A stretch of 64,000 nucleotides of DNA from Candidatus Saccharimonadia bacterium (GCA_963717365.1 OY970327.1:651599-715598), one strand, 5' to 3'; positions 2,319-25,233 are shown, counted from the first letter of the stretch. Notes: generated from the sequence alone by a model not told the origin. Translations and numbers: made by a program.

Positions 2319-2861
2319 TTATGGTGTCGTGGTAAAACCGGAACCTTCCAGGGAGTCAGGCTGCGGAGCGGTGCTGGCAGGAGCCGATTGGGCAGGCGCT
2401 TTTGGATCGCCAAGGTTAATTGGTGCTACTTCTATGATTTTTTTGGTGTCAGGCCGGTATAAGACGGCTTTCTTGGCTTTGGCATACATTACAACCCGGT
2501 CGCCATTCTGGGCTTTGGCAAAGAAGGCTTGGTTGCTGAGTTTGGTTGAGTCAACGACCGTGGCTATAGTAGGGTCTTCATCGGTTGGCAATTCAATTAA
2601 GCGGGAAACTTCCTGTTTAATCTTTTCTGTCTCGGCCTTGGCGGATTCCTGCGGGTTAGACAGGCGCTTCACTTCTTTACGCTGCTCATCATACGCCCGG
2701 TATCCAAAAGCACCTCCGGCGGCAATGAGCAGTACCAGCACTATAATAGCGAGGTAACTTTTTTTAATTTTTACGAAACGGGTTTTGCGATGTTTGTGCG
2801 TTTCTGCGGCAACCGATGCGGTTTCTGCATTCGACGCATTTTTTTTACTTACTTTGGCCAC
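2319..2861 (-). CDS. Single-pass membrane protein, partner of giant gene G1 (paralog of 11157..11843)
   Basis: 180 aa with a GTG start preceded by AGGA. It has a basic N-terminus, a TM helix (YLAIIVLVLLIAAGGAFGY), and a C-terminal domain TIATVVDSTKLSNQAFFAKAQNGDRVVMYAKAKKAVLYRPDTKKIIEVAPINLG. That domain aligns with SLVAVTDPAKLAEKSPVLFKNAQKDDVVLFYLNPDKTGKAVLYRPLTKKLIAIVDGVNLN of the 228-aa protein. Confidence 0.6.
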   Translation of the reverse strand: MAKVSKKNASNAETASVAAETHKHRKTRFVKIKKSYLAIIVLVLLIAAGGAFGYRAYDEQRKEVKRLSNPQESAKAETEKIKQEVSRLIELPTDEDPTIATVVDSTKLSNQAFFAKAQNGDRVVMYAKAKKAVLYRPDTKKIIEVAPINLGDPKAPAQSAPASTAPQPDSLEGSGFTTTP

Positions 2862-2951: not shown

Positions 2952-5900
2952 TTAATGGCTGGCTACCGGAGCCGGTGGGGGCGGATCGGCTGATAAGGCT
3001 ATCCAGGAGAGAGCCATGTCCTCAAGTGCTGGGCTGGCTAGAATAATTTCAAACTCTTCTTCGGTGACATTTTTATAGCTATACTGCGCGAATTTACCAT
3101 CGCCGAGGGTTAGTGAAATAACCGGCTTAGTTGTCTTTGGCTTGCTGAATTTCACCTTAACGCTCGTTTCGCCGGCTTTTACTACAGCAGTACCGGCGGT
3201 ATCGCTGTTCAGCGTAATTTGCCCCTTAACCGCCACATTGCCGTCAAACTGGGCGTCTTTTTCAAACCGCACCATTTCTTTAAATGTAGCCGGTCCCTTA
3301 ACTTCCAGGGCACCCTGGACGATAAGGTTAAGGTTCACCGTCAGGCCCTGGACGTTGGCGTAGCCCAGCACATTGATCTGGCCGTCAAACTGGACGTCTT
3401 TCTGGAAACGGGCCATTTCTTTAAACGTTGCCGGGCCATTAATTTCAACAGCACCTTGGACGATCAGATCAAGGTTTACGGTTAGTTTTTGAACATTAGT
3501 TTCACCGTTAATAATAGCGTTACCGTTGGCCGTTAAGTTGCCGATGGACAGATTCTCGAGGTCAATTTGCTGGGTATTACCTTGGCTGGCTGGCTGTTGT
3601 TCCAGATTGTTTACCCGTGCTTCCAACGACTCAAAGCGGCCATTGTATTCAAGGCCTTCTATGCGATCCGCCCGGATTGTGCCGGCTGTAATGTCGCCGT
3701 TAACCGTTAATGTGTTTGCGGAAACTGCATTCAGGCTGGCATTGCCTTGAGAATTTAAATGCTTAGCAATCTCACCGACAGCCTTCAAATTATAGAAGCT
3801 GAGTCCTTGGAAGTTAACTTCTTTATAGCCGTCCTCCCGCTGCTTCACTAATTCAGGGAAAATTTGTTCAAGTTCCTGGGCTATGACACCGTACTGAAGT
3901 CCGTGGTCAAGGTTAAGTTCGGGCATCTCTTCAACTTTAAAGTTGAAACTGACAACGTTTACACTGTTTAACTTATCAAGGACAGAGCCTACCGAGGTAA
4001 CGTCTTTCTTAACCCGAGCGTCTGAAATACCGGTGGCATCGTTGCGACAGGTACCGGCCGTTGTGATACCACCGCTAATTCTTACGCCGTTACCGATATA
4101 CTGGCCGGCGGTACATGCGGCGACAGTTACGCCGCTTAATCCAGCCTGCTGGTATACACCGCTGGCAACATTAAGGTTGGCTATGCCGGCTCCGAGGTTG
4201 TCTAAGGTCAATGTGGTGGTGGCAGCATTGTTCAGATCAATAGTTGTAGTTCCTGCGGCGTTACGCTGGAGAGTAGAGTCGGTATCGGATATAACAATCT
4301 TATTGCTTGCGCTATCGAGGGTAAGGTCTCCACTGCCGCCGCTAGCTAGCGTGAGACCAGTTGTACCAGTAATATTTGCCCCTACACCAGTAATAGATCC
4401 TGTTTCTGTAATATTGCCGCTGTTATTGTCGATACCCCCTGTAATATTTGCACCTCCGGCTAAAATGGTTAACCCAGATCCTATAATTGCTGTGCCGGAG
4501 GAGGAGGCGCAGCCTGAATCCGAAGTCTCTATACACAAACCTCCGCCCGTTATGTGAAGTCTTGAATCAGGGGCGCTTGTGCCAATGCCAACGCTGCCGT
4601 TAGCCAAAGCCGTAATTATGTCAGTGCCTGATCCGGTGCCGGTAGAAATATTTCCCCGTGTATCGGTAGAGATACTAAATGACCCGGCATTATCGAAGAA
4701 GAAGCCGGATTTTGCCAGTCCTGATTTAAGGGAAGCGATAACGCCGTCAGTACGGTCGATCATAATTGCCGCTCCGGTAGCAGTTTGCTGGACCAGAAGG
4801 TTGCCGTTAATAGCTACGCTTTCGCCGAATTGTACGGCCGTACCATCCAGGTCTGTGATTGCGCCAGCAGTGGTAATTTGGAGACCGGTAGTGCTTGAGC
4901 CCAATAATACCTGGTCATTAAGTACCAGACTGCCATCAATATCGAGCAGCGAACCATCGATAGCTACCTGAAGACCGGTAGCCGCCGAGCCTATATCTGT
5001 TATGTCGTTAAGCACGAGGTTGCCGGTTGGATCAAAAATGGCTCCATCGATGCTAAATGCGCCAGTTATAGTTAAGCCGCCAGTTCCCTGGATAAGGCCG
5101 CTTCCAGCCGTCACTCCGTTGCTGGATACAAGTCCGCTGGCATTTACCTGGAACTGGCTGGTTGAACCTACTGAGAAGAGACCGTCCGGTGTAAGGTCAC
5201 CGCCGACTCCCACATTGCCGCCTAGAGGGTTAAGAACCAAGTCGCGGCCGCCGCCCGATCCAAAGATATCATAAGCACCAATTTCAAAACGGCTGACCGT
5301 ATCACTGGTGCTGACCGAACGGAAATATCCATAGGCATTAAGTGTAGCATCCGTACCCATAAGGTTATATCCGGTGGTATATGTTCCAAATGTGCCATTG
5401 ATAGTACTGTTTCCAGTGATAGAGGCGCTTCCCGACGTGACCACCAGCCCTGTGCCAAACGTTCCTTGACCCTCCACATTCAAGTTTGCCAGCCCTGCCC
5501 CGCTGTTATTTATAGTGAACGCGGTGTCGCTGGCATTAGCCATGTTAAACGTAAGGCCGCTGGTTGTGGCGATGGTGCTTGCACCAAGGTTAACCAATCC
5601 AGAGCCGCTTGAGATTGTTAAGTTATTGGCACCGGTTGTAGATAAGGTTAAGGCACCGGCGTTAGTAACCAGCGGCGTGGTAACGCTGGTATCAAAGACC
5701 GGTGCTTCAGAGATGGTAATGCTGCCGCAGCTGCCGCCGCTGCCAAGGGTAATGACCGTGCCGCCGCCGGTGAGGTCGCCGGAGCCGGCGGCGCAGGTAA
5801 GCTGGGTATTGCCCTGGACTGCCGTGTTGGCGGCTGCGCCGTAGGTAACGCTCAGGCCAGGAGTACTGCCCTCGCCGGAGTTGGTACCGGTAATGGAAAG

Positions 5901-8900
5901 GCCAACCATTGTTCCCAGGTTCTGGACGTAGTCGCCGACCGTTTCGGCGCCCAGGTCAACGGCGTTGTTCTGGACGTCGTTGACGCTTAGTCCGGCCGTG
6001 AACGAGCCGGAGACGTCGCCGGCGGCCGGGCTTTCGCCGACGTTGACGTAGGCGGCGTCGAGTCCGCCGGCGGCGCCGAAGTTAGCCGTTGTCAGCACCG
6101 TTCCGCTAGCACCGTCGAAGGTGTAGGTGGCGGCTGCGCCGCTCGGAGTATTCATGACTATGGTAGCGTCGTTGGTGCCCTTTTCGAAGAACAGCTGGCC
6201 GTTCTCCAGGATACGCAGCTTTTCGCTGCCGGCCGTCGAGAAGACGATGTCGTCGGCGCCGGCCGAGGCGGCGGCTTGCAGATCCAATAGCCCGCCGGCG
6301 TTCTTAAACAGCGGGCTGGTAACGCTGGTATCAAAGACCGGTGCTTCAGAGATGGTAATGCTGCCGCAGCTGCCGCCGCTGCCAAGGGTAATGACCGTGC
6401 CGCCGCCGGTGAGGTCGCCGGAGCCGGCGGCGCAGGTAAGCTGGGTATTGCCCTGGACTGCCGTGTTGGCGGCTGCGCCGTAGGTAACGCTCAGGCCAGG
6501 AGTACTGCCCTCGCCGGAGTTGGTACCGGTAATGGAAAGGCCAACCATTGTTCCCAGGTTCTGGACGTAGTCGCCGACCGTTTCGGCGCCCAGGTCAACG
6601 GCGTTGTTCTGGACGTCGTTGACGCTTAGTCCGGCCGTGAACGAGCCGGAGACGTCGCCGGCGGCCGGGCTTTCGCCGACGTTGACGTAGGCGGCGTCGA
6701 GTCCGCCGGCGGCGCCGAAGTTAGCCGTTGTCAGCACCGTTCCGCTAGCACCGTCGAAGGTGTAGGTGGCGGCTGCGCCGCTCGGAGTATTCATGACTAT
6801 GGTAGCGTCGTTGGTGCCCTTTTCGAAGAACAGCTGGCCGTTCTCCAGGATACGCAGCTTTTCGCTGCCGGCCGTCGAGAAGACGATGTCGTCGGCGCCG
6901 GCCGAGGCGGCGGCTTGCAGATCCAATAGCCCGCCGGCGTTCTTAAACAGCGGGCTGGTAACGCTGGTATCAAAGACCGGTGCTTCAGAGATGGTAATGC
7001 TGCCGCAGCTGCCGCCGCTGCCAAGGGTAATGACCGTGCCGCCGCCGGTGAGGTCGCCGGAGCCGGCGGCGCAGGTAAGCTGGGTATTGCCCTGGACTGC
7101 CGTGTTGGCGGCTGCGCCGTAGGTAACGCTCAGGCCAGGAGTACTGCCCTCGCCGGAGTTGGTACCGGTAATGGAAAGGCCAACCATTGTTCCCAGGTTC
7201 TGGACGTAGTCGCCGACCGTTTCGGCGCCCAGGTCAACGGCGTTGTTCTGGACGTCGTTGACGCTTAGTCCGGCCGTGAACGAGCCGGAGACGTCGCCGG
7301 CGGCCGGGCTTTCGCCGACGTTGACGTAGGCGGCGTCGAGTCCGCCGGCGGCGCCGAAGTTAGCCGTTGTCAGCACCGTTCCGCTAGCACCGTCGAAGGT
7401 GTAGGTGGCGGCTGCGCCGCTCGGAGTATTCATGACTATGGTAGCGTCGTTGGTGCCCTTTTCGAAGAACAGCTGGCCGTTCTCCAGGATACGCAGCTTT
7501 TCGCTGCCGGCCGTCGAGAAGACGATGTCGTCGGCGCCGGCCGAGGCGGCGGCTTGCAGATCCAATAGCCCGCCGGCGTTCTTAAACAGCGGGCTGGTAA
7601 CGCTGGTATCAAAGACCGGTGCTTCAGAGATGGTAATGCTGCCGCAGCTGCCGCCGCTGCCAAGGGTAATGACCGTGCCGCCGCCGGTGAGGTCGCCGGA
7701 GCCGGCGGCGCAGGTAAGCTGGGTATTGCCCTGGACTGCCGTGTTGGCGGCTGCGCCGTAGGTAACGCTCAGGCCAGGAGTACTGCCCTCGCCGGAGTTG
7801 GTACCGGTAATGGAAAGGCCAACCATTGTTCCCAGGTTCTGGACGTAGTCGCCGACCGTTTCGGCGCCCAGGTCAACGGCGTTGTTCTGGACGTCGTTGA
7901 CGCTTAGTCCGGCCGTGAACGAGCCGGAGACGTCGCCGGCGGCCGGGCTTTCGCCGACGTTGACGTAGGCGGCGTCGAGTCCGCCGGCGGCGCCGAAGTT
8001 AGCCGTTGTCAGCACCGTTCCGCTAGCACCGTCGAAGGTGTAGGTGGCGGCTGCGCCGCTCGGAGTATTCATGACTATGGTAGCGTCGTTGGTGCCCTTT
8101 TCGAAGAACAGCTGGCCGTTCTCCAGGATACGCAGCTTTTCGCTGCCGGCCGTCGAGAAGACGATGTCGTCGGCGCCGGCCGAGGCGGCGGCTTGCAGCG
8201 CCAATAGCCCGCCGGCGTTCTTAAACAGCGGGCTGGTAACGCTGGTATCAAAGACCGGTGCTTCAGAGATGGTAATGCTGCCGCAGCTGCCGCCGCTGCC
8301 AAGGGTAATGACCGTGCCGCCGCCGGTGAGGTCGCCGGAGCCGGCGGCGCAGGTAAGCTGGGTATTGCCCTGGACTGCCGTGTTGGCGGCCGAGCCGTAG
8401 GTAACGCTAAGTCCCGGAGTACTGCCCTCGCCGGAGTTGGTACCGGTAATGGAAAGGCCAACCATTGTTCCCAGGTTCTGGACGTAGTCGCCGACCGTTT
8501 CGGCGCCCAGGTCAACGGCGTTGTTCTGGACGTCGTTGACGCTTAGTCCGGCCGTGAACGAGCCGGAGACGTCGCCGGCGGCCGGGCTTTCGCCGACGTT
8601 GACGTAGGCGGCGTCGAGTCCGCCGGCGGCGCCGAAGTTAGCCGTTGTCAGCACCGTTCCGCTAGCACCGTCGAAGGTGTAGGTGGCGGCTGCGCCGCTC
8701 GGAGTATTCATGACTATGGTAGCGTCGTTGGTGCCCTTTTCGAAGAACAGCTGGCCGTTCTCCAGGATACGCAGCTTTTCGCTGCCGGCCGTCGAGAAGA
8801 CGATGTCGTCGGCGCCGGCCGAGGCGGCGGCTTGCAGCGCCAATAGCCCGCCGGCGTTCTTAAACAGCGGGCTGGTAACGCTGGTATCAAAGACCGGTGC

Positions 8901-10862
8901 TTCAGAGATGGTAATGCTGCCGCAGCTGCCGCCGCTGCCAAGGGTAATGACCGTGCCGCCGCCGGTGAGGTCGCCGGAGCCGGCGGCGCAGGTAAGCTGG
9001 GTATTGCCCTGGACTGCCGTGTTGGCGGCCGAGCCGTAGGTAACGCTAAGTCCCGGAGTACTGCCCTCGCCGGAGTTGGTACCGGTAATGGAAAGGCCAA
9101 CCATTGTTCCCAGGTTCTGGACGTAGTCGCCGACCGTTTCGGCGCCCAGGTCAACGGCGTTGTTCTGGACGTCGTTGACGCTTAGTCCGGCCGTGAACGA
9201 GCCGGAGACGTCGCCGGCGGCCGGGCTTTCGCCGACGTTGACGTAGGCGGCGTCGAGTCCGCCGGCGGCGCCGAAGTTAGCCGTTGTCAGCACCGTTCCG
9301 CTAGCACCGTCGAAGGTGTAGGTGGCGGCTGCGCCGCTCGGAGTATTCATGACTATGGTAGCGTCGTTGGTGCCCTTTTCGAAGAACAGCTGGCCGTTCT
9401 CCAGGATACGCAGCTTTTCGCTGCCGGCCGTCGAGAAGACGATGTCGTCGGCGCCGGCCGAGGCGGCGGCTTGCAGCGCCAATAGCCCGCCGGCGTTCTT
9501 AAACAGCGGGCTGGTAACGCTGGTATCAAAGACCGGTGCTTCAGAGATGGTAATGCTGCCGCAGCTGCCGCCGCTGCCAAGGGTAATGACCGTGCCGCCG
9601 CCGGTGAGGTCGCCGGAGCCGGCGGCGCAGGTAAGCTGGGTATTGCCCTGGACTGCCGTGTTGGCGGCCGAGCCGTAGGTAACGCTAAGTCCCGGAGTAC
9701 TGCCCTCGCCGGAGTTGGTACCGGTAATGGAAAGGCCAACCATTGTTCCCAGGTTCTGGACGTAGTCGCCGACCGTTTCGGCGCCCAGGTCAACGGCGTT
9801 GTTCTGGACGTCGTTGACGCTTAGTCCGGCCGTGAACGAGCCGGAGACGTCGCCGGCGGCCGGGCTTTCGCCGACGTTGACGTAGGCGGCGTCAAGAGTA
9901 GATGCATAGTTACTGAGAGTCAGAACACCGTTGCCAAGCCTGATGCGGCTGACGCCGCTGCCCTCGTTGGTTACGATAAATTCACTGTCAGAGCCGGTAG
10001 GCGGCCCAAATTCTATTATGTCTGCCGCTATTGTGGGTGAGCCGTCACTTTCCCGCACCCCGATTGAGGAGCCGCTGCTTGACGTACATTGCCACTCTTT
10101 AGCAGTTGCGTTCCATTTGAGTGATTGCCCGTCGCTGCAGCCCCCCAGCAAACGCAGACCATCGGCACTAATCTCCAGGCCAGAATTGTTGCTTGTCGTA
10201 GCAGTGGTGTTTGTTGTGCTCACATCCACGCAATCCGGTGAGCCTTGGATACAAAGCGTACCATCTTGATCGGGCAAATTGATATTACGGTCTGCCGTTA
10301 AAGCTAAGAAGTCTAAAATACCGGTATTGGCACCGGTGGTTTTGTTTAGAATTTCCGATTGTTTGGCCTGAAAGGCATAAGGCACAGCCGTCAGCTTTAT
10401 CCGCGGCGTCATTTCGCCGTCCCAAACCGGGGTACCGCTGCCCCCAATATTCATCGTCAGCCAGTGGTCCTGATCCCAATCTATTGTCGGTGGAAAACCG
10501 CTTACGTCGCCCAAATTAGCTGATAGGTAACCATTGACTACCCTAACCTTGCTTCCCCCTGTCCTAGTCTCCGTCCATTCGCTTGTTCCGCCGGTACTAG
10601 CGGAGTAGAGGTTAAATTCAATATTGTAGAAGCCGTCCGGTACGACGTTGCCGGCATTGGAAAGCAGGCGCGCCTGGAAGTTGAGATTGCTGGAAGTAGC
10701 CGCATACACGGGGGCAGGCGCGCCCATGCGCGTATATGAAATAACAGCAACAGAGGTCAGAATTACAAAATATACAAAAACACGCAGCAACCGCGTGACA
10801 GGGGAAATTCTAGAACTGAATGCCGATTTGCTAAATCGACACGGATATATCCGTTTTAACAT
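2952..10862 (-). CDS. Giant surface fibre protein G1 (2636 aa): signal/anchor, conserved N-domain, 213-aa tandem repeats, S74-like chaperone domain, C-terminal module
   Basis: Uninterrupted 7.9-kb ORF starting at ATG 10862. The N-terminal hydrophobic segment VFVYFVILTSVAVISY is followed by APAPVYA|ATSS. The ectodomain is rich in T/G/A/N/S/V. It has 6.6 copies of a 213-aa unit. SDARVKKD...GVIAQELEQIFPELV sits near the C-terminus. Confidence 0.85.
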   Translation of the reverse strand: MLKRIYPCRFSKSAFSSRISPVTRLLRVFVYFVILTSVAVISYTRMGAPAPVYAATSSNLNFQARLLSNAGNVVPDGFYNIEFNLYSASTGGTSEWTETRTGGSKVRVVNGYLSANLGDVSGFPPTIDWDQDHWLTMNIGGSGTPVWDGEMTPRIKLTAVPYAFQAKQSEILNKTTGANTGILDFLALTADRNINLPDQDGTLCIQGSPDCVDVSTTNTTATTSNNSGLEISADGLRLLGGCSDGQSLKWNATAKEWQCTSSSGSSIGVRESDGSPTIAADIIEFGPPTGSDSEFIVTNEGSGVSRIRLGNGVLTLSNYASTLDAAYVNVGESPAAGDVSGSFTAGLSVNDVQNNAVDLGAETVGDYVQNLGTMVGLSITGTNSGEGSTPGLSVTYGSAANTAVQGNTQLTCAAGSGDLTGGGTVITLGSGGSCGSITISEAPVFDTSVTSPLFKNAGGLLALQAAASAGADDIVFSTAGSEKLRILENGQLFFEKGTNDATIVMNTPSGAAATYTFDGASGTVLTTANFGAAGGLDAAYVNVGESPAAGDVSGSFTAGLSVNDVQNNAVDLGAETVGDYVQNLGTMVGLSITGTNSGEGSTPGLSVTYGSAANTAVQGNTQLTCAAGSGDLTGGGTVITLGSGGSCGSITISEAPVFDTSVTSPLFKNAGGLLALQAAASAGADDIVFSTAGSEKLRILENGQLFFEKGTNDATIVMNTPSGAAATYTFDGASGTVLTTANFGAAGGLDAAYVNVGESPAAGDVSGSFTAGLSVNDVQNNAVDLGAETVGDYVQNLGTMVGLSITGTNSGEGSTPGLSVTYGSAANTAVQGNTQLTCAAGSGDLTGGGTVITLGSGGSCGSITISEAPVFDTSVTSPLFKNAGGLLALQAAASAGADDIVFSTAGSEKLRILENGQLFFEKGTNDATIVMNTPSGAAATYTFDGASGTVLTTANFGAAGGLDAAYVNVGESPAAGDVSGSFTAGLSVNDVQNNAVDLGAETVGDYVQNLGTMVGLSITGTNSGEGSTPGLSVTYGAAANTAVQGNTQLTCAAGSGDLTGGGTVITLGSGGSCGSITISEAPVFDTSVTSPLFKNAGGLLDLQAAASAGADDIVFSTAGSEKLRILENGQLFFEKGTNDATIVMNTPSGAAATYTFDGASGTVLTTANFGAAGGLDAAYVNVGESPAAGDVSGSFTAGLSVNDVQNNAVDLGAETVGDYVQNLGTMVGLSITGTNSGEGSTPGLSVTYGAAANTAVQGNTQLTCAAGSGDLTGGGTVITLGSGGSCGSITISEAPVFDTSVTSPLFKNAGGLLDLQAAASAGADDIVFSTAGSEKLRILENGQLFFEKGTNDATIVMNTPSGAAATYTFDGASGTVLTTANFGAAGGLDAAYVNVGESPAAGDVSGSFTAGLSVNDVQNNAVDLGAETVGDYVQNLGTMVGLSITGTNSGEGSTPGLSVTYGAAANTAVQGNTQLTCAAGSGDLTGGGTVITLGSGGSCGSITISEAPVFDTSVTSPLFKNAGGLLDLQAAASAGADDIVFSTAGSEKLRILENGQLFFEKGTNDATIVMNTPSGAAATYTFDGASGTVLTTANFGAAGGLDAAYVNVGESPAAGDVSGSFTAGLSVNDVQNNAVDLGAETVGDYVQNLGTMVGLSITGTNSGEGSTPGLSVTYGAAANTAVQGNTQLTCAAGSGDLTGGGTVITLGSGGSCGSITISEAPVFDTSVTTPLVTNAGALTLSTTGANNLTISSGSGLVNLGASTIATTSGLTFNMANASDTAFTINNSGAGLANLNVEGQGTFGTGLVVTSGSASITGNSTINGTFGTYTTGYNLMGTDATLNAYGYFRSVSTSDTVSRFEIGAYDIFGSGGGRDLVLNPLGGNVGVGGDLTPDGLFSVGSTSQFQVNASGLVSSNGVTAGSGLIQGTGGLTITGAFSIDGAIFDPTGNLVLNDITDIGSAATGLQVAIDGSLLDIDGSLVLNDQVLLGSSTTGLQITTAGAITDLDGTAVQFGESVAINGNLLVQQTATGAAIMIDRTDGVIASLKSGLAKSGFFFDNAGSFSISTDTRGNISTGTGSGTDIITALANGSVGIGTSAPDSRLHITGGGLCIETSDSGCASSSGTAIIGSGLTILAGGANITGGIDNNSGNITETGSITGVGANITGTTGLTLASGGSGDLTLDSASNKIVISDTDSTLQRNAAGTTTIDLNNAATTTLTLDNLGAGIANLNVASGVYQQAGLSGVTVAACTAGQYIGNGVRISGGITTAGTCRNDATGISDARVKKDVTSVGSVLDKLNSVNVVSFNFKVEEMPELNLDHGLQYGVIAQELEQIFPELVKQREDGYKEVNFQGLSFYNLKAVGEIAKHLNSQGNASLNAVSANTLTVNGDITAGTIRADRIEGLEYNGRFESLEARVNNLEQQPASQGNTQQIDLENLSIGNLTANGNAIINGETNVQKLTVNLDLIVQGAVEINGPATFKEMARFQKDVQFDGQINVLGYANVQGLTVNLNLIVQGALEVKGPATFKEMVRFEKDAQFDGNVAVKGQITLNSDTAGTAVVKAGETSVKVKFSKPKTTKPVISLTLGDGKFAQYSYKNVTEEEFEIILASPALEDMALSWIALSADPPPPAPVASH
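3745..4040 (-). other. Peptidase S74-like intramolecular chaperone / autoproteolysis domain of G1
   Basis: Sequence GISDARVKKDVTSVGSVLDKLNSVNVVSFNFKVEE...LQYGVIAQELEQIFPELVKQREDGYKEVNFQGLSFYNLKAVGEIAKHL. The Ser-Asp codons are at complement 4020-4025, with Lys at +5. This pattern matches the endosialidase / tail-spike C-terminal chaperone family. Confidence 0.65.
5679..9892 (-). repeat. 639-bp (213-aa) in-frame tandem repeat, about 6.6 copies, in two subfamilies of identical copies
   Basis: Antisense shadow ORFs recur at 6127, 6766, 7405, 8044, 8683 and 9322, a period of 639. The three copies spanning 8044-9892 are identical to each other. The copies spanning 5679-8043 are also identical to each other. 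The two sets differ at about 7 nt per unit, for example gcagcgcc vs gcagatcc (LLALQ vs LLDLQ) and YGSAAN vs YGAAAN. Confidence 0.9.
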
Positions 10863-10927
10863 GTGTTTTTGTTTGTTTTTGGTTTTTGTTTTTGTTTTTA
10901 CTATATATTTAGTAAATAACTAGTCAC

Positions 10928-10975
10928 AGTATGACTCTTTTCAAACAGGGGTGCAATAGTAATCGAGTACAAAAT
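10928..10975 (-). promoter_or_regulatory. Promoter-like block upstream of G1 (-10 CATACT, -35 TTGCAC, upstream ATTTTGTACTC element)
   Basis: The minus strand reads ATTTTGTACTCgattactaTTGCAC-N17-CATACT, with -10 at complement 10928-10933 and -35 at complement 10951-10956. The whole block is about 85% identical to 44911..44959 upstream of G3. It is followed by a leader of about 60 nt, AAAAACAAAAACAAAAACCAAAAACAAACAAAAACAC-ATG, with no Shine-Dalgarno. Confidence 0.45.
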
Positions 10976-11129
10976 ATATGCAGGTATTGTATGGAAATTC
11001 CGCTTTGCACATAAATAAAATGACGTATTTATAGCAACAATATTTTCCATATTTATCTGTTAACTAGCAGTATTGAACACATTTAATACTATAGACACTG
11101 CTGGAACTTTAATTTAATTGCAACAATAC

Positions 11130-11138
11130 TTATCCACA
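11130..11138 (+). promoter_or_regulatory. Perfect DnaA-box 9-mer TTATCCACA (followed by G) in the G2-operon/G1 intergenic region
   Basis: Read directly as ctTATCCACAgccggg with the preceding t, at 11130-11138. It lies 19 nt downstream of the stop of 11157..11843 and about 270 nt upstream of the G1 ATG. TTGAACACA lies at 11073-11081. Confidence 0.4.
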
Positions 11139-11156: not shown

Positions 11157-11843
11157 TTATCGAGCTGGTCTGGCTGGCATCGCGTTTGTGGCAGGTTCGG
11201 TACTAGATGTACCAGGGTTCAGGTTAACCCCATCGACAATAGCAATAAGTTTTTTAGTTAATGGCCGGTATAAAACAGCCTTTCCTGTTTTATCGGGGTT
11301 AAGATAGAACAGGACAACATCATCTTTTTGGGCATTCTTGAATAATACCGGACTCTTCTCGGCAAGCTTTGCCGGGTCGGTGACGGCTACTAACGAGGGT
11401 GTCTGGTCGGCCGGGACATCAGTATAGGAGCGTATTTCCTCGTGGTACTTAACCGCTTCGGCCTCGGCATCTGCTGTGGCGGCTTGCGATGCTTTTGGAT
11501 CAGCAGCAGTATTTGAGCCATCGTCATCGCGGCTTACTAACAGTATAACGGCTATAAAGGCTGCCAGCAGGAGCAACCCGGCTATAACCAGCATCTTAGG
11601 TGATACCACGATACCGGGCGCTGGCGGAGGGGATAGTGGCGCCTGTCTTGGTAAAAACAGAGGCGGATGAGACGTTTCGGCAGGTTTCCCGGGAGGCTTG
11701 GTTTCTTCTGCCGATTCTTCCGGGGTGTCATCTAAGGAGGGCTGGGTCTCAATTGGTTTTGCCTCATCTGTAATGGCGGCGTCTGATGACACTGGCTCTG
11801 TTGGCTCCTCGGCTTTTGGAACTTTTACACGCACGCGCGCCAC
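11157..11843 (-). CDS. Single-pass membrane protein, partner of giant gene G2 (paralog of 2319..2861)
   Basis: 228 aa with a GTG start preceded by GGAGAGGAG. It has an acidic/Pro-rich N-terminus, a TM helix (MLVIAGLLLLAAFIAVILLV), and a C-terminal domain shared with the 180-aa protein (KAVLYRP.TKK.I motif). Confidence 0.6.
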   Translation of the reverse strand: MARVRVKVPKAEEPTEPVSSDAAITDEAKPIETQPSLDDTPEESAEETKPPGKPAETSHPPLFLPRQAPLSPPPAPGIVVSPKMLVIAGLLLLAAFIAVILLVSRDDDGSNTAADPKASQAATADAEAEAVKYHEEIRSYTDVPADQTPSLVAVTDPAKLAEKSPVLFKNAQKDDVVLFYLNPDKTGKAVLYRPLTKKLIAIVDGVNLNPGTSSTEPATNAMPARPAR

Positions 11844-11917: not shown

Positions 11918-14900
11918 TTACTGTTGGATAAAGGTATTTGGATTTGTAACGCTGAGGGCGGTCCATGAGAACTGGACGTTCTCTGTGGCCGGCTGGCTGA
12001 GCATAATATCAAATCCGGTTGACGTTACGTTGCGGTAGGCATACTGGGCAAAGCCGCCCTCACCGAGAGTAAGGGAGATAACCGGCTGCTGGCTGAATGG
12101 CTTTGTGAAGCTGACATGGACACTCTGCTGCCCGGCATTGATTGCCGCGTAGCCGCCGGTGTTGCTATTGAACCTGGCCTCGCCGTTAAAGCTGGTAAGG
12201 CCGTTGAGCTGCACGTCGCCATTAAAAGTTGCCAGCTGCTCAAACAGGGCCGTACCCTGGAAAGTTGAGCTGCCCTTCACTACCAATGCGCCTTCGGTAA
12301 ACATATCTAGGGTTATATTCAGGTTGCCAACTGTCAGGTTTTCCAGGTCAATTTGCTGGCTTGGACCGGTGTTGCTTGCCTGACTTTGCTCAAGACTATT
12401 TACCCGGGTTTCCAGAGCTGATAACTTAACGTCCAAGCCGTCTATCTGCTCAAATTGTTCCATACTGATATCGCCGACTTTTTGGTTAAGCTCAATTAGG
12501 CCTTTTAAGGTGTATATATTAAGGGCGTCGTATTTTACCCGGAAATAGCCGTCTTGGCCCTGAGCAACTAGTTCAGGAAAGATCTCAGCTATCTCCTGGG
12601 CAATAACACCAGTGCCGCGGTCGCAGCTTAAATCAAGAACCGTATAGTCGGGATCGTCACATTTAAACTCAAACGTAACAGTATTAATGCTCTGGAGTTT
12701 ATCTAAAATTCCATCTTCAATGCTGGCGACATTTTCTTTCAGGCGGGCGTCAGAAAGTCCGGCATCATCAGCTTCGCAGGTACCAGCTGTAATGATACCG
12801 CCTGTTGAGGTGGCGTTACCCATAAATTGGTTAGCGGCACAATCCAGAGTGATGCCATTTACGCCATCATTCTGATATACGCCCGTCCCTGTTACATTAA
12901 AGTTGCCACTGGTAGATATGGTACTGCTGGCAGCTATGGTGGTAGCGCCGGAAACAGCGCCGGCGCTGGTTATACCACCGGCATTATTGTTTATGCCGCC
13001 GGTTATATTTGCCCCCCCGCCGGTAACTGTCAGTCCGGTAATGTTCTGCAAGGCACCGGCGTTAGTTAATCGTGTCACTCCGGCAGTTTGAAGGCTACCT
13101 TCGCTGATATTAAAGTTAGCAACTCCCAAGCCGCTGTTGGTTAGTATAAAAGTAGTAGTTAACAGATCATTCAGATCGGTTGTGAAAGAACCGGCCCCAG
13201 TCCTTTGGACTGAAGTATCAGAACTATCAATAACGAGAGTGTTACTGGCACTGTTTAACGTAAGGTTTGCGCTGCCTCCTGAGCTAACCGTCAGTGCGCC
13301 AGTTCCGGTAATACTCGCGATATTCTGCAAAGCACCGGTACTGGTTAGCCGTACGGTACCATTAGTGGCGACCGAGTTAAAGTTTATATTGCCGTCTCCG
13401 TCCAACAGGTCTGCCATTTCTGTTGTGGCGGAAAGTCCATAGAATAAGAGGGACTGGTTTCTTACTTGTAAAAATCCGTTGGCACCCGTAGAAACTAGTT
13501 CTGGAAATATTAACGCAAGCTGCTGGGCTATTACTCCCGTGCGATCATCGCAGGTTAAATCAAGAGCTGCGTACAACACGTCCAGGCAAAGATAGTTGTA
13601 ATCAACAACGTTTACATTCTTTATCTGGCTGAGCATGTTTGTTTTGGACACCACATTTGTTTTAAGGGTGCCGTCTGAAATACCGGTGTCATCAGGTTCG
13701 CAGGTTCCTGCCGTGATTATACCGCCGCTGACGGTTTGGTTGCCCAGGAATTCATTAGCTGCACAGTCTGGACTGATACCGTTTACTCCATCATTTTGAT
13801 AAACGCCAGTACCCGTTACATTGAAGTTTCCACTGGTAGAGATGGTATTGTTGGCAGCAATAGTAGTAGCGCCGGCAATTGCGCCCGTATTAGTGATACC
13901 GCCGGTGTTATTGTTAATACCGCCGCTGATACTGGCACCGCCGCTAGCGACTGTCAGCCCCGTAATACCGGTAAGGGTCCCTGTTATAGTACTATTCCCT
14001 GTTACAGTTATGCCGCCAGCTGTGACTGCCAAGCTGCCACCGAATGAGCCTCCGCCTTCGACGCTTAAACTAGCGGTTTGTGTTCCGTCGGAATTTGTAA
14101 CAGATAAGGTAGTGTTGGCACCGGCGTTTAGCAAATCGATAATTGTAGTACCGGCAGCACTGCGCCGCAAAGTGCCTGAACCGATATTAACCACGCCGTT
14201 GCCACTCGTTAAAGTAAGTGCCCCTGTACCTTGGGTTTGTACGAGTAGGTTTTGGTTATTGGCAGCTTGGATAGTTGTTGCGCCGGCTCCGGCGAAAGTC
14301 AGCGCGGTACCGGTAAATGTATTGGTGTTTATAGTACCGCCAACCGTTATATTATTTGTTACGTTAATCGCTACCCCGGCTGCTGAAAAAGTATTGGCTA
14401 AAGTAAAGTTATTTGCCTGGTTTTCATATGCTATGTTGGTGAGCGTTCCGGCAGTATTAATATCCACGCCGTTAAGCTGGAAGGCACCGGCAGTAGTATT
14501 AATGTTGCCTGACGCGGTAACACTAGTAAAACTTGGCGTAGCCGACAATGAAACGTTGCCACAAGTGCCGCCAGTCCCCAGGGTTATGGTATTGCCACCG
14601 CCGCTTAGGTTGCCAGTTCCAGATGCACAAGTGATCTGGGTATTGCCTTCTACCGCCGTGCCTGCACCGGAACCGTACTGAACATTTAGAGTAGCGGTAC
14701 CGCCGGCTCCTAGGGTAAGTGTTCCGCCGCCGCCAAGGCCTGTGCCAGCAGCTACAGTAACTGCTGTATTGCCCTGGACAGCGGTGTTGGCGGCTGAGCC
14801 GTAGAGCACGCTGATGGTTGGAGTACTGCCTTCGCCGGTGTTGCCGGTGGTAGATAGGCCGGTTAGGGTGCCGAGGGTGGCTATGTAGTTGCCTACAGTG

Positions 14901-17900
14901 TCAGTACCTAGGTCAACACTGTTGTTCTGTACACTGTTTACGAGGAAGCCAGCCGTGAATGAACCGGAGATGTCACCGGCAGCCGGTGCCTGCCCTTCGT
15001 TTACATAGGTAGCATCAAGCGTAGTGGTGTAGTTGGCGGTAGTCAGGACGGTGCCGGTGGCGCCTGAGAAGGTGTAGGTGGCAGCGGCGCCGGGGGCGGC
15101 TACCGCAAAGGTAACGTCGTTAGTGCCCTTTTCGAATTTCAGGTCGCCGTTTTCAAGGATACGCACTGCTTCGCCGCCGGCCGTATTAAAGATGATGTCG
15201 TCGGCACCGGCGGTGGCGGTTGTACCAACAGTAAGTATTCCGGCGCTTTGTACTATTGGTGTAGTAACGCTGGTGCCAAAGCTAACGGCAGCATTGGTAG
15301 TTATGTTACCGCAAGAACCAGCTGTACCTAAGGCAAAGCTGTTGCCGCCACCGGTGAGGTTACCAGTGCCGGATGCACAGGTAATCTGGGTATTGCCCTG
15401 GACAGCGGTGTTGGCGGCAGAGCCGTACAGTACTGAGATAGTTGGCGTGCTGCCTTCTCCGGTGTTGCCGGTGGTGCTGAGGCCGGTTAGGGTGCCAAGG
15501 ACGGATATGTAGTTGCCGGTTGTTTGAGTCCCTAAGGTAACGGCGTCAGCGTCGATCTCGCCATTAGAAATTGAGGTACCGAGGGTTGCTACCAGCGATC
15601 CGCTGGAAATACCCAGCCCTGTACCTGTTAAATCAGTGAAGGCGTCGCCGTTAAGCGTAAATGTGTCGCCGGTCTCAATGGTTAGGCCACCGTTGGCGGT
15701 AATCAGGCCGGCCGCGGCCACCGTGCCGGTGAAGCTGACAGCGTTGCCAATAGTCTGGCCGTTAATAGTGCCACTGGTCACGTTGCCATTGGTTGCGACC
15801 TGGAAGGCATCAGCCGTACCGGCCGTCAGCGTACCGGATACATCTAGGTTGCCGGTAACGTTAGTGTTATCTTGCAGCTCTATGGTTGAACCGCTGTTAA
15901 GTGTTATCAGGTCAGCACTGGTAATGGCCAGGTCATTGCCCACTCCTGTTGCTGAGATTGTTAAGTTCCCAGCATTAGTAACGATTGGCGTCGTAACACT
16001 GGTGCCAAAACTAACCGCCGCATTAGTTGTAAGGTTACCGCAAGATCCGGCTGTACCAAGGGCAAAGCTGTTACCCCCACCGCTGAGGTTACCAGTGCCG
16101 GATGCGCAGGTGATCTGGGTGTTGCCTTGAACGGCAGTGTTGGCGGTTGAACCGTAAAGGACGCTGATGGTTGGAGTTGAGCCCTCTCCAGTGTTGCCGG
16201 TAGTGCTTAGGCCGGTTAATGAGCCTAAGGTAGCTATGTAGTTGCCTACGGTATCTGTCCCTAAGTCTACGCTGTTGTTTTGGACGCTATTAACGAGGAA
16301 ACCAGCGGTGAATGAACCGCTGATGTCACCGGCTGATGGATTTTCGCCAGTGTTAACGTACGTTCCGTCCAGAGTAGCTGTGTAATTAGCGGTGGTGAGA
16401 ATCGTACCAGTAGCGCCTGAGAACGTATAGTTAGCGGGAGCGCCAGACGGGGTAGCAATAATAAAGGTGGCGTCGTTAGTACCACGCTCAAACCGTAAAT
16501 CACCGTTTTCCAGTATGCGGAAAGTTTCGCTTCCGGCGTTGCTAAAGACAATGTCATCAACACCAGCCGTAGCGGTCGATGAGATAGCAAGCGATCCAGC
16601 GTTCGTTAGTGTTGGCGTGGTCACAGAAGTTGCAAAGCTCACAGCTGCGTTAGTTGTAATATTGCCGCATGATCCGGCTGAACCAAGGGCGAAACTGTTA
16701 CCGCCACCTGAAAGGTTGCCCGTCCCACTGGCGCAGGTGATCTGGGTATTGCCTTGGACGGCGGTATTGGCGCCTGAGCCATAAAGAACGGCTATGGTTG
16801 GAGTGCTGCCTTCGCCGGTGTTGCCGGTGCTAGATAAGCCAGTCAGCGTGCCTAGGGTAGCAATGTAGTTTCCAACCGTATCTGTGCCCAGATCAACTGA
16901 GTTATTCTGGACGCTGTTAACCAAGAAGCCGGCAGTAAATGAACCGGAAATATCACCGGCTGTTGGGTTTTCACCAGTATTAACATAGGTACCGTCAAGC
17001 GTAGCCGTATAATTAGCGGTGGTGAGAATCGTACCGGTAGCGCCGCTAAAGGTATACGTAGCAGCCGCGCCGGGAGTTACTACTGCAAAAGTCACGTCGT
17101 TGGTACCTTTTTCAAACCTAAGGTCGCCGTTTTCCAAAATACGCACTACTTCACTGCCAGCTGTGTTAAAGATTATGTCGTCGGCGCCTCCGGTAGCGGT
17201 GGTACCGATACTCATAGTGCCTGCATTCTGAATAGTTGGCGTAGTTACAGAGGTTGAGAAACTGACTGCCGCGTTAGTAGTAAGGTTGCTGCAGCTACCG
17301 CCCGTACCAAGCGTGAGCGTATTGCCGCCCCCACTCAGATTGCCAGTTCCAGATGCGCAGGTAATTTGGGTATTACCTTGGACGGCGGTATTGGCTGCTG
17401 AACCGTATAGCACACTGATGGTTGGAGTACTGCCTTCTCCAGTGTTGCCGGTGGTAGATAAGCCAGTTAAGCTGCCCAAGGTTGCTATGTAGTTGCCGAC
17501 TGTATCTGTTCCAAGATCAACGCTGTTATTCTGGACGCTGTTAACTAAGAAGCCAGCAGTAAATGAGCCGCTAATGTCACCGGTGGCAGGGCTTTCACCA
17601 GTGTTTACGTAGCCGGTGTCCAGGTTGGTGGCGTAGTTTCCGGTGGTTAATATGGTGCCGCTGACACCGCTAAAGGTGTAGGTAGCAGCCGCGCCGGGAG
17701 CCGCAAAGGCTAAGGTTATATCATTGGTGCCCTTCTCGACTCTGACATCGCCGTTTTCTAAGAACCGCATCACTTCGTTGCCAGCCGTGCTCAAGACAAT
17801 GTCGTCAGCACCGGCCGTAGCGGTTGTAGTCAGATTTAGAGCCCCGGCGGTGGTTATTGTTGGCGTAGTAACTGAGGTACCAAAGCTAACAGCCGCATTA

Positions 17901-20900
17901 GTAGTAATGTTACCGCAACTGCCAGCTGAACCAAGGGCGAAGCTGTTGCCACCGCCACTTAAGTTGCCAGTTCCAGATGCACAGGTGATCTGGGTATTGC
18001 CCTGGACGGCGGTGCCCGCGCCAGAACCGTAGAGAACTGCCAAAGTAGGCGTAGAGCCTTCTCCGGTGTTGCCGATGGTTGAGAGACCGGTGAGAGTGCC
18101 TAGAGTTGCTATGTAGTTGCCGGTAGTCTGTGTACCTAGAGTAACTGCGTCGGCGTCAATCTCACCATTAGAAATTGAGGTACCAAGGGTTGCTACCAGC
18201 GATCCGCTTGAAATACCCAGTCCGGTGCCTGTTAAATCAGTAAATGTGTCTCCGTTAAAGGTAAAGGTATCACCCGCTTCAATGATTAGACCGCCGTTAA
18301 CACTTAACAGCGCGGAGAACATACCGGCACCGGTTACACTTAGATCGCCACCCAACAAACTCAGACCGCGAGTACTGTCGATTTCAATATTAGAACCATT
18401 CTGAGCAAGCCAAGAGCTGGATAAGCTATTACTACCGGTATATAGAGGAATTCGATTGGTTGTACCGGAGCCAGTGATAGTTCCGGCCGCACCGCCATCG
18501 TCGTTGTCGCAGGTTAGAACACCGCTGGCATTGACGGTTAGAGCACCGCCGTTATCATAAGTAGAACAGTTGAAACCAGTTAAAATGATCTGGTCAGCAC
18601 TGGTAAGTGTTAAGTCGTTGCCGGCTCCTGTTGTTGAAATGACTAATCCTCCAGCATTGGTTATCAGCGGTGTAGTAACACTGGTAGCAAACGATGGAGC
18701 CGCGCTAATGCTCAGGTTGCCACAACTGCCGGCTGAACCGAGAGCAAAGCTATTGCCACCACCTGTGAGATTACCGGTACCGCTAGCACAAGTGATCTGG
18801 GTGTTGCCTTGGACAGCGGTGTTGGCGGCTGAACCGTAGAGGACGCTGATGGTTGGAGTACTGCCTTCGCCGGTGTTGCCAGTGGTGCTTAGGCCAGTCA
18901 GTGTGCCGAGGACAGATACATAATTGCCAGTAGTTTGCGCACCTAACGTGACGGCATCAGCATCAATTTCGGCATTAGAGATAGATGTGCCGAGAGTAGC
19001 CTGCAGTGATCCGCCGGAAATGGCTAAGCCGGTGCCTGTAAGATCAGTGAACGCATCACCGTTCATAGTGAATGTATCACCTGCTTCAACGGTTAGGCCA
19101 CCGTTAGCACTAATCAGGCCAGCTGCAGCCAGTGTGCCAGTGAAGCTGGCGCTGGCACCGATGGTTTGTCCGTTAACGGTGCCACTGGTTACATCGCCAT
19201 TTGCCACCACTTGGAAAGCGTTTGCCGTACCCGCTATTAAGGTTCCGGACACATCCAGACTACCAGTAATGTTAGTGTTATCTTGCAGTTCTATGGTTGA
19301 ACCGCTGTTAAGTGTTATCAGGTCAGCACTGTTAATGGTCAGGTCATTGCCTGCCCCAGTAGCTGAAAGTGTTAGGTTGCCGGCATTGGTAACGGTTGGC
19401 GTAGTGACACTGGTTGCAAAACTAACCGCGGCATTAGTAGTAATATTTCCACATGATCCAGCTGAACCAAGAGCAAAGCTATTGCCACCACCTGTGAGAT
19501 TACCGGTACCACTGGCGCAGGTGATCTGGGTGTTGCCTTGGACAGCGGTGTTGGCGGCTGAACCGTAGAGGACGCTGATGGTTGGGGTGGAACCTTCGCC
19601 AGTATTGCCAGTGGTTGAGAGACCTGTCAGGGTGCCTAGGACGGATATGTAGTTGCCTACTGTATCTGTACCTAGGTCAACTGAATTGTTTTGGACACTG
19701 TTAACTAAGAAGCCAGCAGTAAATGAGCCGCTAATGTCACCGGTGGCAGGGCTTTCACCAGTGTTTACGTAGCCGGTGTCCAGGTTGGTGGCGTAGTTTC
19801 CGGTGGTTAATATGGTGCCGCTGACACCGCTAAAGGTGTAGGTAGCAGCCGCGCCGGGAGCCGCAAAGGCTAAGGTTATATCATTGGTGCCCTTCTCGAC
19901 TCTGACATCGCCGTTTTCTAAGAACCGCATCACTTCGTTGCCAGCCGCGCTAAAGACAATGTCGTCAGCCCCTGCAGTAGCGGTAGTAGCGATGGCAAGC
20001 GAACCGGCATTTTGCAATGTTGCGGTGTTCACACTAGTAAACGATGGAGTGGCGGTCATACTGATGGCGTTACAAGTTCCACCGGTGCCAAGCGTTATAG
20101 TGTTTCCGCCGCCAGAAAGATTACCGCTGGTGCTGCTACAAGTAACTTGGGTATTGCCTTGGACGGCAGTGTTGGCACCTGAGCCGTATATAACGCTGAG
20201 CGTAGGAGTGGAACTTTCACCGGTGTTGCCGGTAGTATTAAGACCAGTCAGGGCACCGAGAGTTGCTACGAAATTACCAGTAGTTTGAGTGCCTAGTGTT
20301 ACTGCATCGGCATCAATTTCTCCATTAGATATAGAGGTACCAAGTATTGCCTGTAGGGCACCGCCAGAAATCGATAATCCGCTGCCGGTCAGATCACTAA
20401 AGGCTTCGCCATTGATGGTGAAGCTATCGCCTGTCTCTATTGTCAGGCCGCCGTTGGCGGTTAACAACGCGGAGAACATACCGGCACCAGTAACATCCAA
20501 ATTGCCTCCAAGTAAGCTCAGGCCACGGGTACTGTCGATCTCAATACTTGATCCGTTTTGCGCCAACCATGAAGTTGATAGGCTGTTTGCACCGGTGTAC
20601 AGCGGTATTCGATTGGTAATACCCGAACCCGTGATAGTTCCGGCCGCACCGCCATCGTCGTTGTCGCAGGTTAGAACACCGCTGGCATTGACGGTTAGAG
20701 CACCGCCGTTATCATAAGTAGAACAGTTGAAACCAGTTAAAATGATCTGGTCAGCACTGGTAAGAGTTAAGTCATTACCGGCTCCTGTTGTTGAAATGAC
20801 TAATCCTCCAGCATTGGTTATCAGCGGTGTGGTAACACTGGTAGCAAATGAAGCGGCAGCGTTGGTGGTAATATTTCCGCACGAACCGCCCGTACCCAGA

Positions 20901-24808: not shown

Positions 24809-24878
24809 TTTGTTAGATTTTTGAACTACTTTTGTGTTCGTTATCTGTTTCTTATGTCTGTTAAGAAAGCTTATGCAT

Positions 24879-24931
24879 AGTTTACCTGGTAGCATTACAC
24901 TATGCAAGCCTATTGTGCACATTTTGTACTC
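24879..24931 (-). promoter_or_regulatory. Promoter-like block upstream of G2 (-10 TAAACT, -35 TTGCAT, inverted GAGTACAAAAT element)
   Basis: The minus strand reads GAGTACAAAATgtgcacaataggcTTGCAT-N17-TAAACT, with -10 at complement 24879-24884 and -35 at complement 24902-24907. The leader ...CGAACACAAAAGTAGTTCAAAAATCTAACAAA-ATG has no Shine-Dalgarno. Confidence 0.4.
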
Positions 24932-25224
24932 ACAGTACTAATTAATACTTTTACTGTTTATAGGGGTCGGGTATGTGGGCAGCGTGTATCACCGAGGAAT
25001 ATGACTGGAAAATACTGATTATTAATAAGGAGATTTATGCATGGAAGACAGTTTAGTTTTTTGTATTGAGGAATTTTATTAAATTAAGATTGAATTGAAT
25101 AATAATTAATTTATTTACGTGCTGCCAAAAATGTAATTTATCGTTAAAAATAAGCAAATTGGCTATAAATATTTGTATTTTATGTGTTCAAAAGTATATA
25201 TTATACAACATATTTTTTTCGGAC

Positions 25225-25233
25225 TTTTCCACA
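25225..25233 (+). promoter_or_regulatory. DnaA-box-like 9-mer TTTTCCACA (fits TTWTNCACA) upstream of G2
   Basis: Read directly as ggacTTTTCCACAatt. TGTGTTCAA lies at 25183-25191. It sits in an AT-rich intergenic region between the 5S terminator and G2. Confidence 0.3.

Follow-up and report, generated by a model that had tools for sequence, protein, structure and literature searches.

Giant genes G1 and G3 and their common base domain

We report on two giant genes, G1 and G3, in a 64,000-nucleotide (nt) stretch of DNA from Candidatus Saccharimonadia bacterium (GCA_963717365.1 OY970327.1:651599-715598; hereafter the window), the source genome being a single contig of 1.19 Mb that is 98% complete. 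The window is dominated by four giant genes, all on the minus strand, and the features that an initial annotation had described in it were all found where it had placed them, with one number corrected. The four genes are:

2952-10862, minus strand: G1, 2636 amino acids (aa)
11918-24922, minus strand: G2, 4334 aa
34326-44798, minus strand: G3, 3490 aa (34326-44939 in the list of open reading frames, ORFs)
45602-62089, minus strand: G4

The N-termini of G2 and G4 differ, the base domain discussed here being absent from both, and exactly two copies of this domain are present genome-wide, i.e. those of G1 and G3. In these two genes the following parts were distinguished:

10701-10862, minus strand: G1 signal peptide or signal anchor, aa 1-54, hydrophobic at 28-43, probable cleavage at VYA/ATSS
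10335-10700, minus strand: G1 base domain core, aa 55-176, predicted beta-sandwich with the neck VPYAFQAKQSE
10248-10334, minus strand: end of the region that G1 shares with G3, aa 177-205, ...TADRNINLPDQDGTLCI
5655-9896, minus strand: G1 shaft, a 639-nt (213-aa) unit in 6.6 tandem copies that are 97-99.6% identical, with a G+C content of about 0.65
3687-4043, minus strand: G1 Peptidase_S74 (S74) chaperone/protease, SDxxxK at residue 2280
2952-3686, minus strand: G1 tail after S74, 244 aa and the stop codon
44661-44798, minus strand: G3 signal peptide or anchor, aa 1-46 with the ATG at 44798 as start
44226-44660, minus strand: G3 base domain core, aa 47-191, with two insertions that G1 lacks
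42345-43361, minus strand: G3 shaft block 1, aa 480-818, on average 95.6% identical in nucleotides to a fibre gene of genome G010
36336-40511, minus strand: G3 shaft block 2, aa 1430-2821, on average 94.8% identical in nucleotides to the same G010 gene
34329-35108, minus strand: G3-type C-terminal tip, the last 260 aa

A BLASTP comparison of G1 with G3 gave a single significant segment (residues 22-205 of G1, 61-275 of the G3 entry P0002) with 119 of 216 columns identical (55%, E 2e-64), and all other segments had E values of 7.1 or higher. Specifically, the signal/anchor has 16/33 identical residues, the mature core (G1 residues 55-176) 88/121 (73%) and the next 27 columns 13/27, and the likeness ends near G1 residue 205 (...GTLCI). 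The initial annotation had called the signal/anchor and the N-terminal ~130 residues clearly homologous; these alignments bear this out, and an overall identity of 55% is far beyond the 30% under which it would have given up the claim. The residues A-A-T-S-S around the putative cleavage site are conserved in the family, and in G1 the signal would be cleaved at VYA/ATSS.

At the nucleotide level the coding heads of G1 and G3 are 60% identical, and at 72 of the 118 identical head residues the codons differ. Moreover, genome G010, which belongs to another genus of the same family, has an orthologue of G1 (75% identity over 1741 aa, with the same 213-aa repeat) and also a G3-type fibre, which was counted as the G3 orthologue. 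Because of this low nucleotide identity, the differing codons and the presence in G010 of an orthologue of each, the sequences argue that G1 and G3 are old paralogues kept alike by selection and not a freshly copied cassette. Of the one shared expression-and-export cassette that had been proposed for the two genes, the homologous head therefore stands, while recent copying is contradicted by the codons, and the head is not private to G1 and G3 (see below).

The base domain is covered neither by Pfam nor by PDB sequences; when PDB sequences were searched with the base profile, the one hit was a glycosyltransferase at E 0.13, which is meaningless. In the AlphaFold2 model it is a beta-sandwich with a mean pLDDT of 77.9 and above 90 in the core. 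When three copies were modelled together the ipSAE was 0.88, whereas none of three controls exceeded 0.00; at least 90% of the contacts recur between runs, with a partner pLDDT of 89 or higher. The ipSAE mark is reached by 20 of 30 solved homo-pairs and by 1 of 23 single chains and, having been calibrated on two copies, applies roughly to three. The domain is thus predicted to trimerise, with the interface formed by G1 residues 156-176 (the VPYAFQAKQSE neck), which lie within the stretch (G1 150-176) that best matches the mosaic adhesive trimer (MAT) profile discussed below. The S74 domain of G1 would, going by what is usual in its family, also imply a trimer. The clusters that a search of the ESM Atlas returned, from Minisyncoccota (0.90) and Myxococcota (0.88), were all unnamed and gave no usable link.

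Alternative ectodomains and exchange of shaft DNA

Behind the base the two proteins are built differently. The 639-nt unit of the G1 shaft was found by self-BLAST, its length exceeding the longest period handled by Tandem Repeats Finder (500). The G1 orthologue in G010 (G010b) has ten repeat units; the G1 units are ~72% identical to these ten, yet 97-99.6% identical among themselves, which points to concerted evolution inside each gene. The G+C content of the G1 repeat is ~0.65 vs 0.45 for the genome. Further towards the C-terminus, PF13884 matches G1 residues 2280-2340 (E 3.1e-15, 56.6 bits, gathering cut-off 22) with the motif SDARVK at 2280, and this domain matches PDB 6f45 (E 8.8e-7), where SDRRIKKD corresponds to SDARVKKD in G1. 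The 244 residues that follow are common to four other proteins of the family. G1 also has a PHROG long-tail-fibre match; PHROG gave no match for G3.

The G3 ectodomain, by comparison, consists of units rich in G, T, S, A, N and I, lacks S74 and gave no match in Pfam. That the ectodomains of G1 and G3 are unrelated, as the initial annotation had it, agrees with the absence of any BLASTP likeness between them and with this difference in build. The model of the G3 tip has a mean pLDDT of 64 (74-90 for residues 141-260), and a search against the PDB gave 15 matches at E <= 1e-3, mostly phage tailspike and tail-fibre structures and carbohydrate-binding modules; going by this model the tip is probably a beta-sandwich of the carbohydrate-binding type. 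An iterated hidden Markov model started from the G3 tip drifted into the base domain of all 156 family proteins. Homology between tip and base was rejected, since direct hhalign alignments of the two gave a probability of 0.6%.

Matches to a profile built from the two heads numbered 9449 cluster representatives at E <= 1e-3; 2001 of them remained at 1e-10 and 626 at 1e-30. Of 41 related genomes, 26 have the ~120-aa domain, with one to four matches per genome in frames that vary greatly in length, and a sample of 251 genomes from across Patescibacteria yielded it in 58 (a count that includes G000 and the unpublished G199). In species-representative genomes, 451 of 508 pattern matches encode a relative, and among the best 80 of these matches nearly all bear the label Saccharibacteria or Saccharimonadales. 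We analysed 151 proteins, i.e. the best hits among the profile matches together with G3. In all 151 the domain is N-terminal, starting at a median residue of 38 (maximum 119), although the proteins range in length from 142 to 3996 aa. On some contigs of Saccharibacteria two or three base-domain genes lie within 10-20 kb (L055/L057/L069, L081/L097 and L105/L106), so fibre genes also occur in arrays.

The constancy of the base and the variety of what follows it can be compared directly. Where 400 aa or more follow the domain (129 representatives), the base can be aligned in each of the 8256 pairs, while 3484 of these pairs have no BLAST hit between the ectodomains (E <= 1e-5) and only 53 show mutual coverage of at least half. 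The G1 ectodomain is without a match in 118 of the 128 other representatives and that of G3 in 30 of 128. S74 occurs in 9 of 156 family proteins and the G3 tip in 33 of 156, at the very C-terminus in 21. A search for the N-domain attached to other ectodomains, which the initial annotation had suggested, therefore found what was expected. A quick maximum-likelihood tree was made from 39 labelled rows of the base domain; on it S74 requires seven changes, and the well-supported branches alone force at least two changes between S74 and G3-type tips. In a FastTree tree of 151 rows this label needed seven changes vs a shuffled mean of 8.8; this count was set aside because truncated proteins inflate it.

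A shaft segment of G3 appears to have moved between genera. Of the 10473 nt of G3, 5195 are at least 90% identical (mean ~95%) to the G010 fibre gene, although G010 represents a different genus. Elsewhere the two genes are far less alike: the tip is 76-81% identical, the N-terminal region 53% in protein, and the first 1437 nt of G3 gave no blastn hit to G010. As a yardstick, the ROK kinase is 51% identical between this genome and G010, compared with 80% and 62% within the genus, and G1 and its G010 orthologue show a uniform identity of 71-72%. Among 29 other genomes of the family the shaft block is present in G010 only, and genomes of the same genus reach at most 74% over 378 nt of it. The best reading of these comparisons is a recent lateral transfer, or recombination, of shaft DNA. 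The visible breakpoints lie inside the shaft and not at the junction of base and shaft, where the initial annotation had suggested looking for them. The modular exchange of shafts and tips behind a constant base that it envisaged is thus upheld in part by the G3 shaft and by the two or more tip changes on the tree, while G1 and G3 themselves do not stem from a recent swap.

The upstream gene head and the surroundings of the giant genes

Upstream of, and just inside, the coding sequences of G1 and G3 the same elements were seen in the same order:

11130-11138, minus strand: DnaA-box-like 9-mer TGTGGATAA, 276 nt upstream of the G1 ATG
10928-10983, minus strand: G1 promoter block, CATATATTTTGTACTCGATT followed by a -35 element TTGCAC (10951-10956), a 17-nt spacer and a -10 element CATACT (10928-10933)
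10863-10921, minus strand: putative G1 5' leader of ~58 nt, nearly pure A/C at 10863-10902, no Shine-Dalgarno (SD)-like 4-mer
10781-10797, minus strand: terminator-like hairpin and T-run inside the part of G1 coding for the signal peptide
45135-45143, minus strand: DnaA-box-like 9-mer TGTGGATAA, 345 nt upstream of the G3 ATG
44911-44968, minus strand: G3 promoter block, CATAAATTTTGTACTCAATTAACCA followed by a -35 element TTGACC, a 17-nt spacer and a -10 element CATACT
44799-44904, minus strand: putative G3 5' leader of ~105 nt, A/C-rich, (CCAAA)n adjoining the ATG
44748-44764, minus strand: terminator-like hairpin and T-run inside the part of G3 coding for the signal peptide

The start of G3 is almost certainly the ATG at 44798 and not the TTG at 44939 of the ORF list, because this TTG is part of the -35 hexamer and the predicted start of the orthologue aligns with the ATG; the transcription start sites that set the leader lengths are likewise predicted from sequence. 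The promoter blocks (10928-10975 and 44911-44959) are identical in 37 of 50 alignment columns. This is 74% and not the ~85% given in the initial annotation, a value that only the 5' part approaches, but the likeness is far beyond chance: the best local alignment of the 300-nt regions upstream of G1 and G3 scored 51 vs 22.6 +/- 3.2 (maximum 36) in 300 shuffles.

The A/C-rich leader described for both genes turned out to be nearly unique in the genome. Runs of at least 94% A+C in 35 nt occur four times in the 1.19 Mb, twice as the leaders of G1 and G3 and twice as runs coding for proline, and the A+C fractions at -40 to -1 (0.95 for G1, 0.93 for G3) are the highest among 419 ORFs of at least 300 aa. 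A leader of this composition cannot pair with itself and should therefore offer the ribosome an open landing site. Unstructured A-rich or CA-rich 5' untranslated regions can drive SD-independent translation as ribosome landing sites, and the G1 and G3 leaders resemble these in being nearly pure A/C, in not self-pairing and in having no SD-like 4-mer. They differ in being tied to one gene family throughout a phylum, with weaker forms before other giant genes, and in being described from sequence only.

The genes of relatives keep the order of TGTGGAWAA, a block of the TTTTGT type, -35 and -10 elements and an A/C-rich leader. TGTGGAWAA is present within 500 nt upstream in 65 of 72 related loci (median -308), and an SD-like 4-mer in 2 of 72. 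The A+C fraction at -40 to -1 has a median of 0.76 over these 72 loci and reaches 0.80 or more in 30 of them, compared with 3 of 971 control ORFs. Weaker versions of the head also precede G2 and G4, so the upstream elements are no private cassette of G1 and G3. Before G4 (62090-62215), CTGTGGATAAC, AAATTTTGTGTTC, TTGACA and an A-rich leader lie within ~125 nt of the ATG; before G2 (24809-25240) there are a TGTGGAAAA variant, TTGCAT and TAAACT separated by 17 nt, and an A-rich leader. Since the head recurs before these genes, which lack the base domain, it marks the giant surface genes as a group.

The G+C-rich hairpins are situated 35-65 nt into the coding sequence in G1, G3 and the loci L004, L008 and L012; in L004, the G3 orthologue, the stem sequence is different and the position the same. 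A hairpin in the first 160 nt was seen in 20 of 72 related loci, starting at nt 34-57 in 16 of the 20, compared with 43 of 739 control ORFs; for ORFs whose N-terminus is hydrophobic the count was 22 of 199, and shuffles of codon order gave 6%. In a subset of the genes it may act as an early attenuator or pause site.

The giant genes flank a 23S-5S rRNA pair and are located downstream of genes for tRNA-Ala and tRNA-Ile. The 23S gene (region 25355-29359) spans 3538 nt for a model of 2925 positions and therefore probably carries insertions. On the strand of the 23S gene and ~34 kb upstream of it are the genes for tRNA-Ala and tRNA-Ile, in this order (63289-63660); the interval contains G4, G3 and three smaller ORFs, two of which share that strand. 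No 16S gene is present within the 64-kb window. Among eight neighbouring ORFs searched against Pfam, six are without a family, one is a ROK/glucokinase and one matches DivIC below the cut-off. No phage or tailocin structural module was seen around G1 and G3 in this Pfam search of eight ORFs, the flanks being 23S and 5S rRNA and tRNA genes.

Small genes lie directly 3' of G1 (2319-2861, minus strand, 180 aa) and of G2 (11157-11843, minus strand, 228 aa). Their products are paralogous single-pass membrane proteins (38% identity over 71 aa, E 8e-12); the ORFs downstream of G3 (895 and 291 aa) show no likeness to them. In the N-terminal part of G2 (23723-24922), two stretches read by eye resemble helix-turn-helix motifs of the excisionase/MerR type and precede a transmembrane segment, an unusual start for a surface protein of 4334 aa.

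Relation to Bdellovibrio MAT fibres and competing explanations

The sole NCBIfam family matched by either head is NF053851, Bdello_MAT_N. G3 matches it with E 4.7e-5 and 23.2 bits (profile positions 9-153 of 162) and G1 with E 4.2e-4 and 20.2 bits. Of 21 family members, 12 matched it (best E 1.3e-8), and no competing family was matched by more than one; in a class that has diverged further the count was 5 of 6, giving 17 of 27 at E <= 0.01. There was no match in 14 control genomes. In these comparisons of family members with the NF053851 profile the homology of the base with the MAT N-domain is thus specific and detectable, though below threshold.

According to the account of the Bdellovibrio bacteriovorus MAT fibres by Caulton et al. 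2024 (PMC10769870), each of 21 such fibres has a beta-rich domain, conserved and ~130 aa in length, directly after the signal peptide; there are S74 (SDxxxK) and non-S74 subgroups with variable adhesive tips, and the fibres are displayed on the surface and bind prey glycans. The same account gives the N-domain as lacking a PDB homologue and as presumed to bind an element of the predator surface. G1, G3 and their relatives are similarly organised: a beta-rich domain follows the hydrophobic segment and A/ATSS, then comes a long fibre, and at the end either an S74 chaperone/protease (as in G1) or a non-S74 tip (as in G3). Several paralogues per genome share one base and carry different tips, and both groups are bacteria that live on or in other bacteria. 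However, G1 and G3 are 2.5-3.5 times longer than the ~1000-aa MAT proteins and have near-identical tandem repeats, there are two copies here vs 21 in strain HD100, and neither the DnaA-box-like site nor the A/C-only leader figures in the part of PMC10769870 drawn on here. We found no link of MAT fibres to Patescibacteria or Saccharibacteria in the papers on these fibres that were consulted, although the supplementary homologue tables of PMC10769870 may list such proteins.

Phage tail fibres and tailspikes that end in an S74 intramolecular chaperone, endosialidase-type spikes among them, offer a further comparison. The G1 S74 domain aligns with the distal subunit of a long tail fibre (6f45), the modules are exchangeable and mosaic in both, and the G3 tip model resembles the C-terminal sandwiches of CBA120 TSP4, K2-2 TSP and Kp7 gp52. 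In contrast to phage fibres, G1 and G3 are cellular, apparently Sec-exported proteins in a chromosomal housekeeping context with no virion genes seen nearby, the base has no significant structural match to phage adaptor domains, and 244 residues follow the S74 core of G1.

Taken together, these data make it probable in our judgement that G1 and G3 are old paralogues in a Patescibacteria-wide family of giant, Sec-exported surface fibres that are remotely related to the MAT fibres and share their build. Their most likely, putative function would be that of trimeric host-adhesion fibres of the MAT type. The hydrophobic N-terminal segment would carry the protein across the membrane, and the ~120-aa beta-sandwich is predicted to join two other copies around the conserved PR(I/L)KLTxVPYAF neck, setting the register of a homotrimeric shaft. 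By analogy, the base would hold the fibre at the cell surface and the long repeat shaft would project the distal tip. In G1 the tip region is predicted to be folded and then cut by the S74 chaperone-protease; in G3 the tip would be the beta-sandwich of carbohydrate-binding type; and the tips may attach to structures on the surface of the bacterium that is the epibiont's host. Expression would depend on a family-wide gene head with the DnaA-box-like site ~300 nt upstream, a sigma-70-like promoter and a long A/C leader without SD sequence, and diversity would arise as repeats expand and as lineages recombine shaft segments laterally, the latter as seen in G3.

Several points weigh against this reading. 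Every NF053851 match is under the 60-bit cut-off (range 20-35, with 35.1 bits as the best among the 27 members), and a scan of the whole genome finds only G3 (E 0.0039, 16.6 bits). Foldseek searches with the base model gave no match at E <= 1e-3 in the PDB or BFVD, and the fold therefore gives no independent link to the MAT proteins. The G3 tip model is of moderate confidence (mean pLDDT 64) with low TM-scores (0.28-0.37 on the query), the promoter regular expression matched only 31 of the 72 related loci, the near-identical shaft block rests on two assemblies, and a mis-join in the repeat-rich G010 gene is possible. Finally, the lineage is thought to lack the outer membrane on which the Bdellovibrio fibres sit, and for this reason the anchoring partner must differ from that of Bdellovibrio.

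The base might instead be an assembly module only, which nucleates the trimer, fixes the register of the shaft and binds nothing; the fibre would then be attached to the cell by an uncleaved signal anchor or by another protein, for instance one of the small membrane proteins whose genes follow G1 and G2. In its favour, the predicted trimer interface is the most conserved motif, the ~10 residues between the hydrophobic segment and the putative cleavage site (TRMGAPAPVYA) are long for the c-region of a signal peptide, and the small proteins after G1 and G2 are paralogous (E 8e-12). However, A-x-A/ATSS-like sites are conserved family-wide, conservation spans the whole sandwich (73% over 121 residues) and not the neck alone, and no such small partner is encoded downstream of G3; we give this alternative a small chance. 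A role as S-layer or other structural envelope proteins, the N-domain binding the wall like SLH and the remainder forming a lattice, is still harder to reconcile with the data and we consider it improbable. Many S-layer proteins combine a conserved domain near the wall with an exposed part that is hypervariable, and a strong, specialised expression head would suit an abundant protein. Yet neither G1 nor G3 has an SLH or other S-layer or wall-binding Pfam family (E <= 0.01), S74 is characteristic of trimeric fibres and spikes and the base is predicted to trimerise, genomes have one to four matches with widely varying frame lengths, and the G3 tip model resembles tailspikes and carbohydrate-binding modules.

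That G1 and G3 are tail fibres of a prophage or tailocin, with the shared head as the virion-attachment domain, would account for S74 and the PHROG long-tail-fibre match of G1, and the base model shows weak structural echoes of BppU-type N-domains and minor tail proteins of phages (none at E <= 1e-3, and leads only). Against this stand the N-terminal export signals on both proteins, the absence of a PHROG match for G3, the rRNA, tRNA and housekeeping context in which six of eight neighbouring ORFs have no Pfam family and the others are the ROK/glucokinase and the sub-cut-off DivIC, and the recurrence of the family and its upstream elements in most related genomes, which together leave it very little credit. 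An equally faint prospect is recent gene conversion, or a recently duplicated cassette placed before two unrelated genes. It could draw on the noncoding promoter block being more alike (74%) than the coding head (60%), but it is already contradicted by the 72 of 118 identical residues with different codons, and G010, from another genus, has an orthologue of G1 (75% over 1741 aa) as well as a fibre of the G3 type, the head being phylum-wide. We retain the interpretation of G1 and G3 as old, MAT-like fibre paralogues.

A more far-reaching proposal, which we regard as possible though doubtful, is that Patescibacteria hold a large, laterally shuffled repertoire of giant fibres that shares ancestry with the prey-recognition fibres of Bdellovibrio, has one trimerising base behind which shafts and tips are exchanged between genera, is switched as a unit through a reader of the DnaA-box-like operator and is translated through an A/C-only leader without SD pairing. 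If this is true, a common fibre toolkit would underlie the choice of target by unrelated bacteria that live on other bacteria.

For the attachment of Saccharibacteria to their hosts, type IV pili and a few unspecified adhesins are named in the accounts consulted (PMC10633639, PMC11665869), and the former also reports natural competence. Shaft repertoires that are traded between lineages, as the near-identical block in two genera suggests, would fit this competence. The base domain provides a simple handle for candidate host-recognition genes in thousands of uncultured genomes and a defined module in which anchoring and trimerisation can be examined, while experiments could address the A/C-only leader and the conserved upstream site as candidate regulatory elements. 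The domain moreover links the family, below threshold, to the Bdellovibrio MAT proteins, the sole system in which such fibres have been shown on the surface and binding prey glycans. If this is true, a common fibre toolkit would underlie the choice of target by unrelated bacteria that live on other bacteria.

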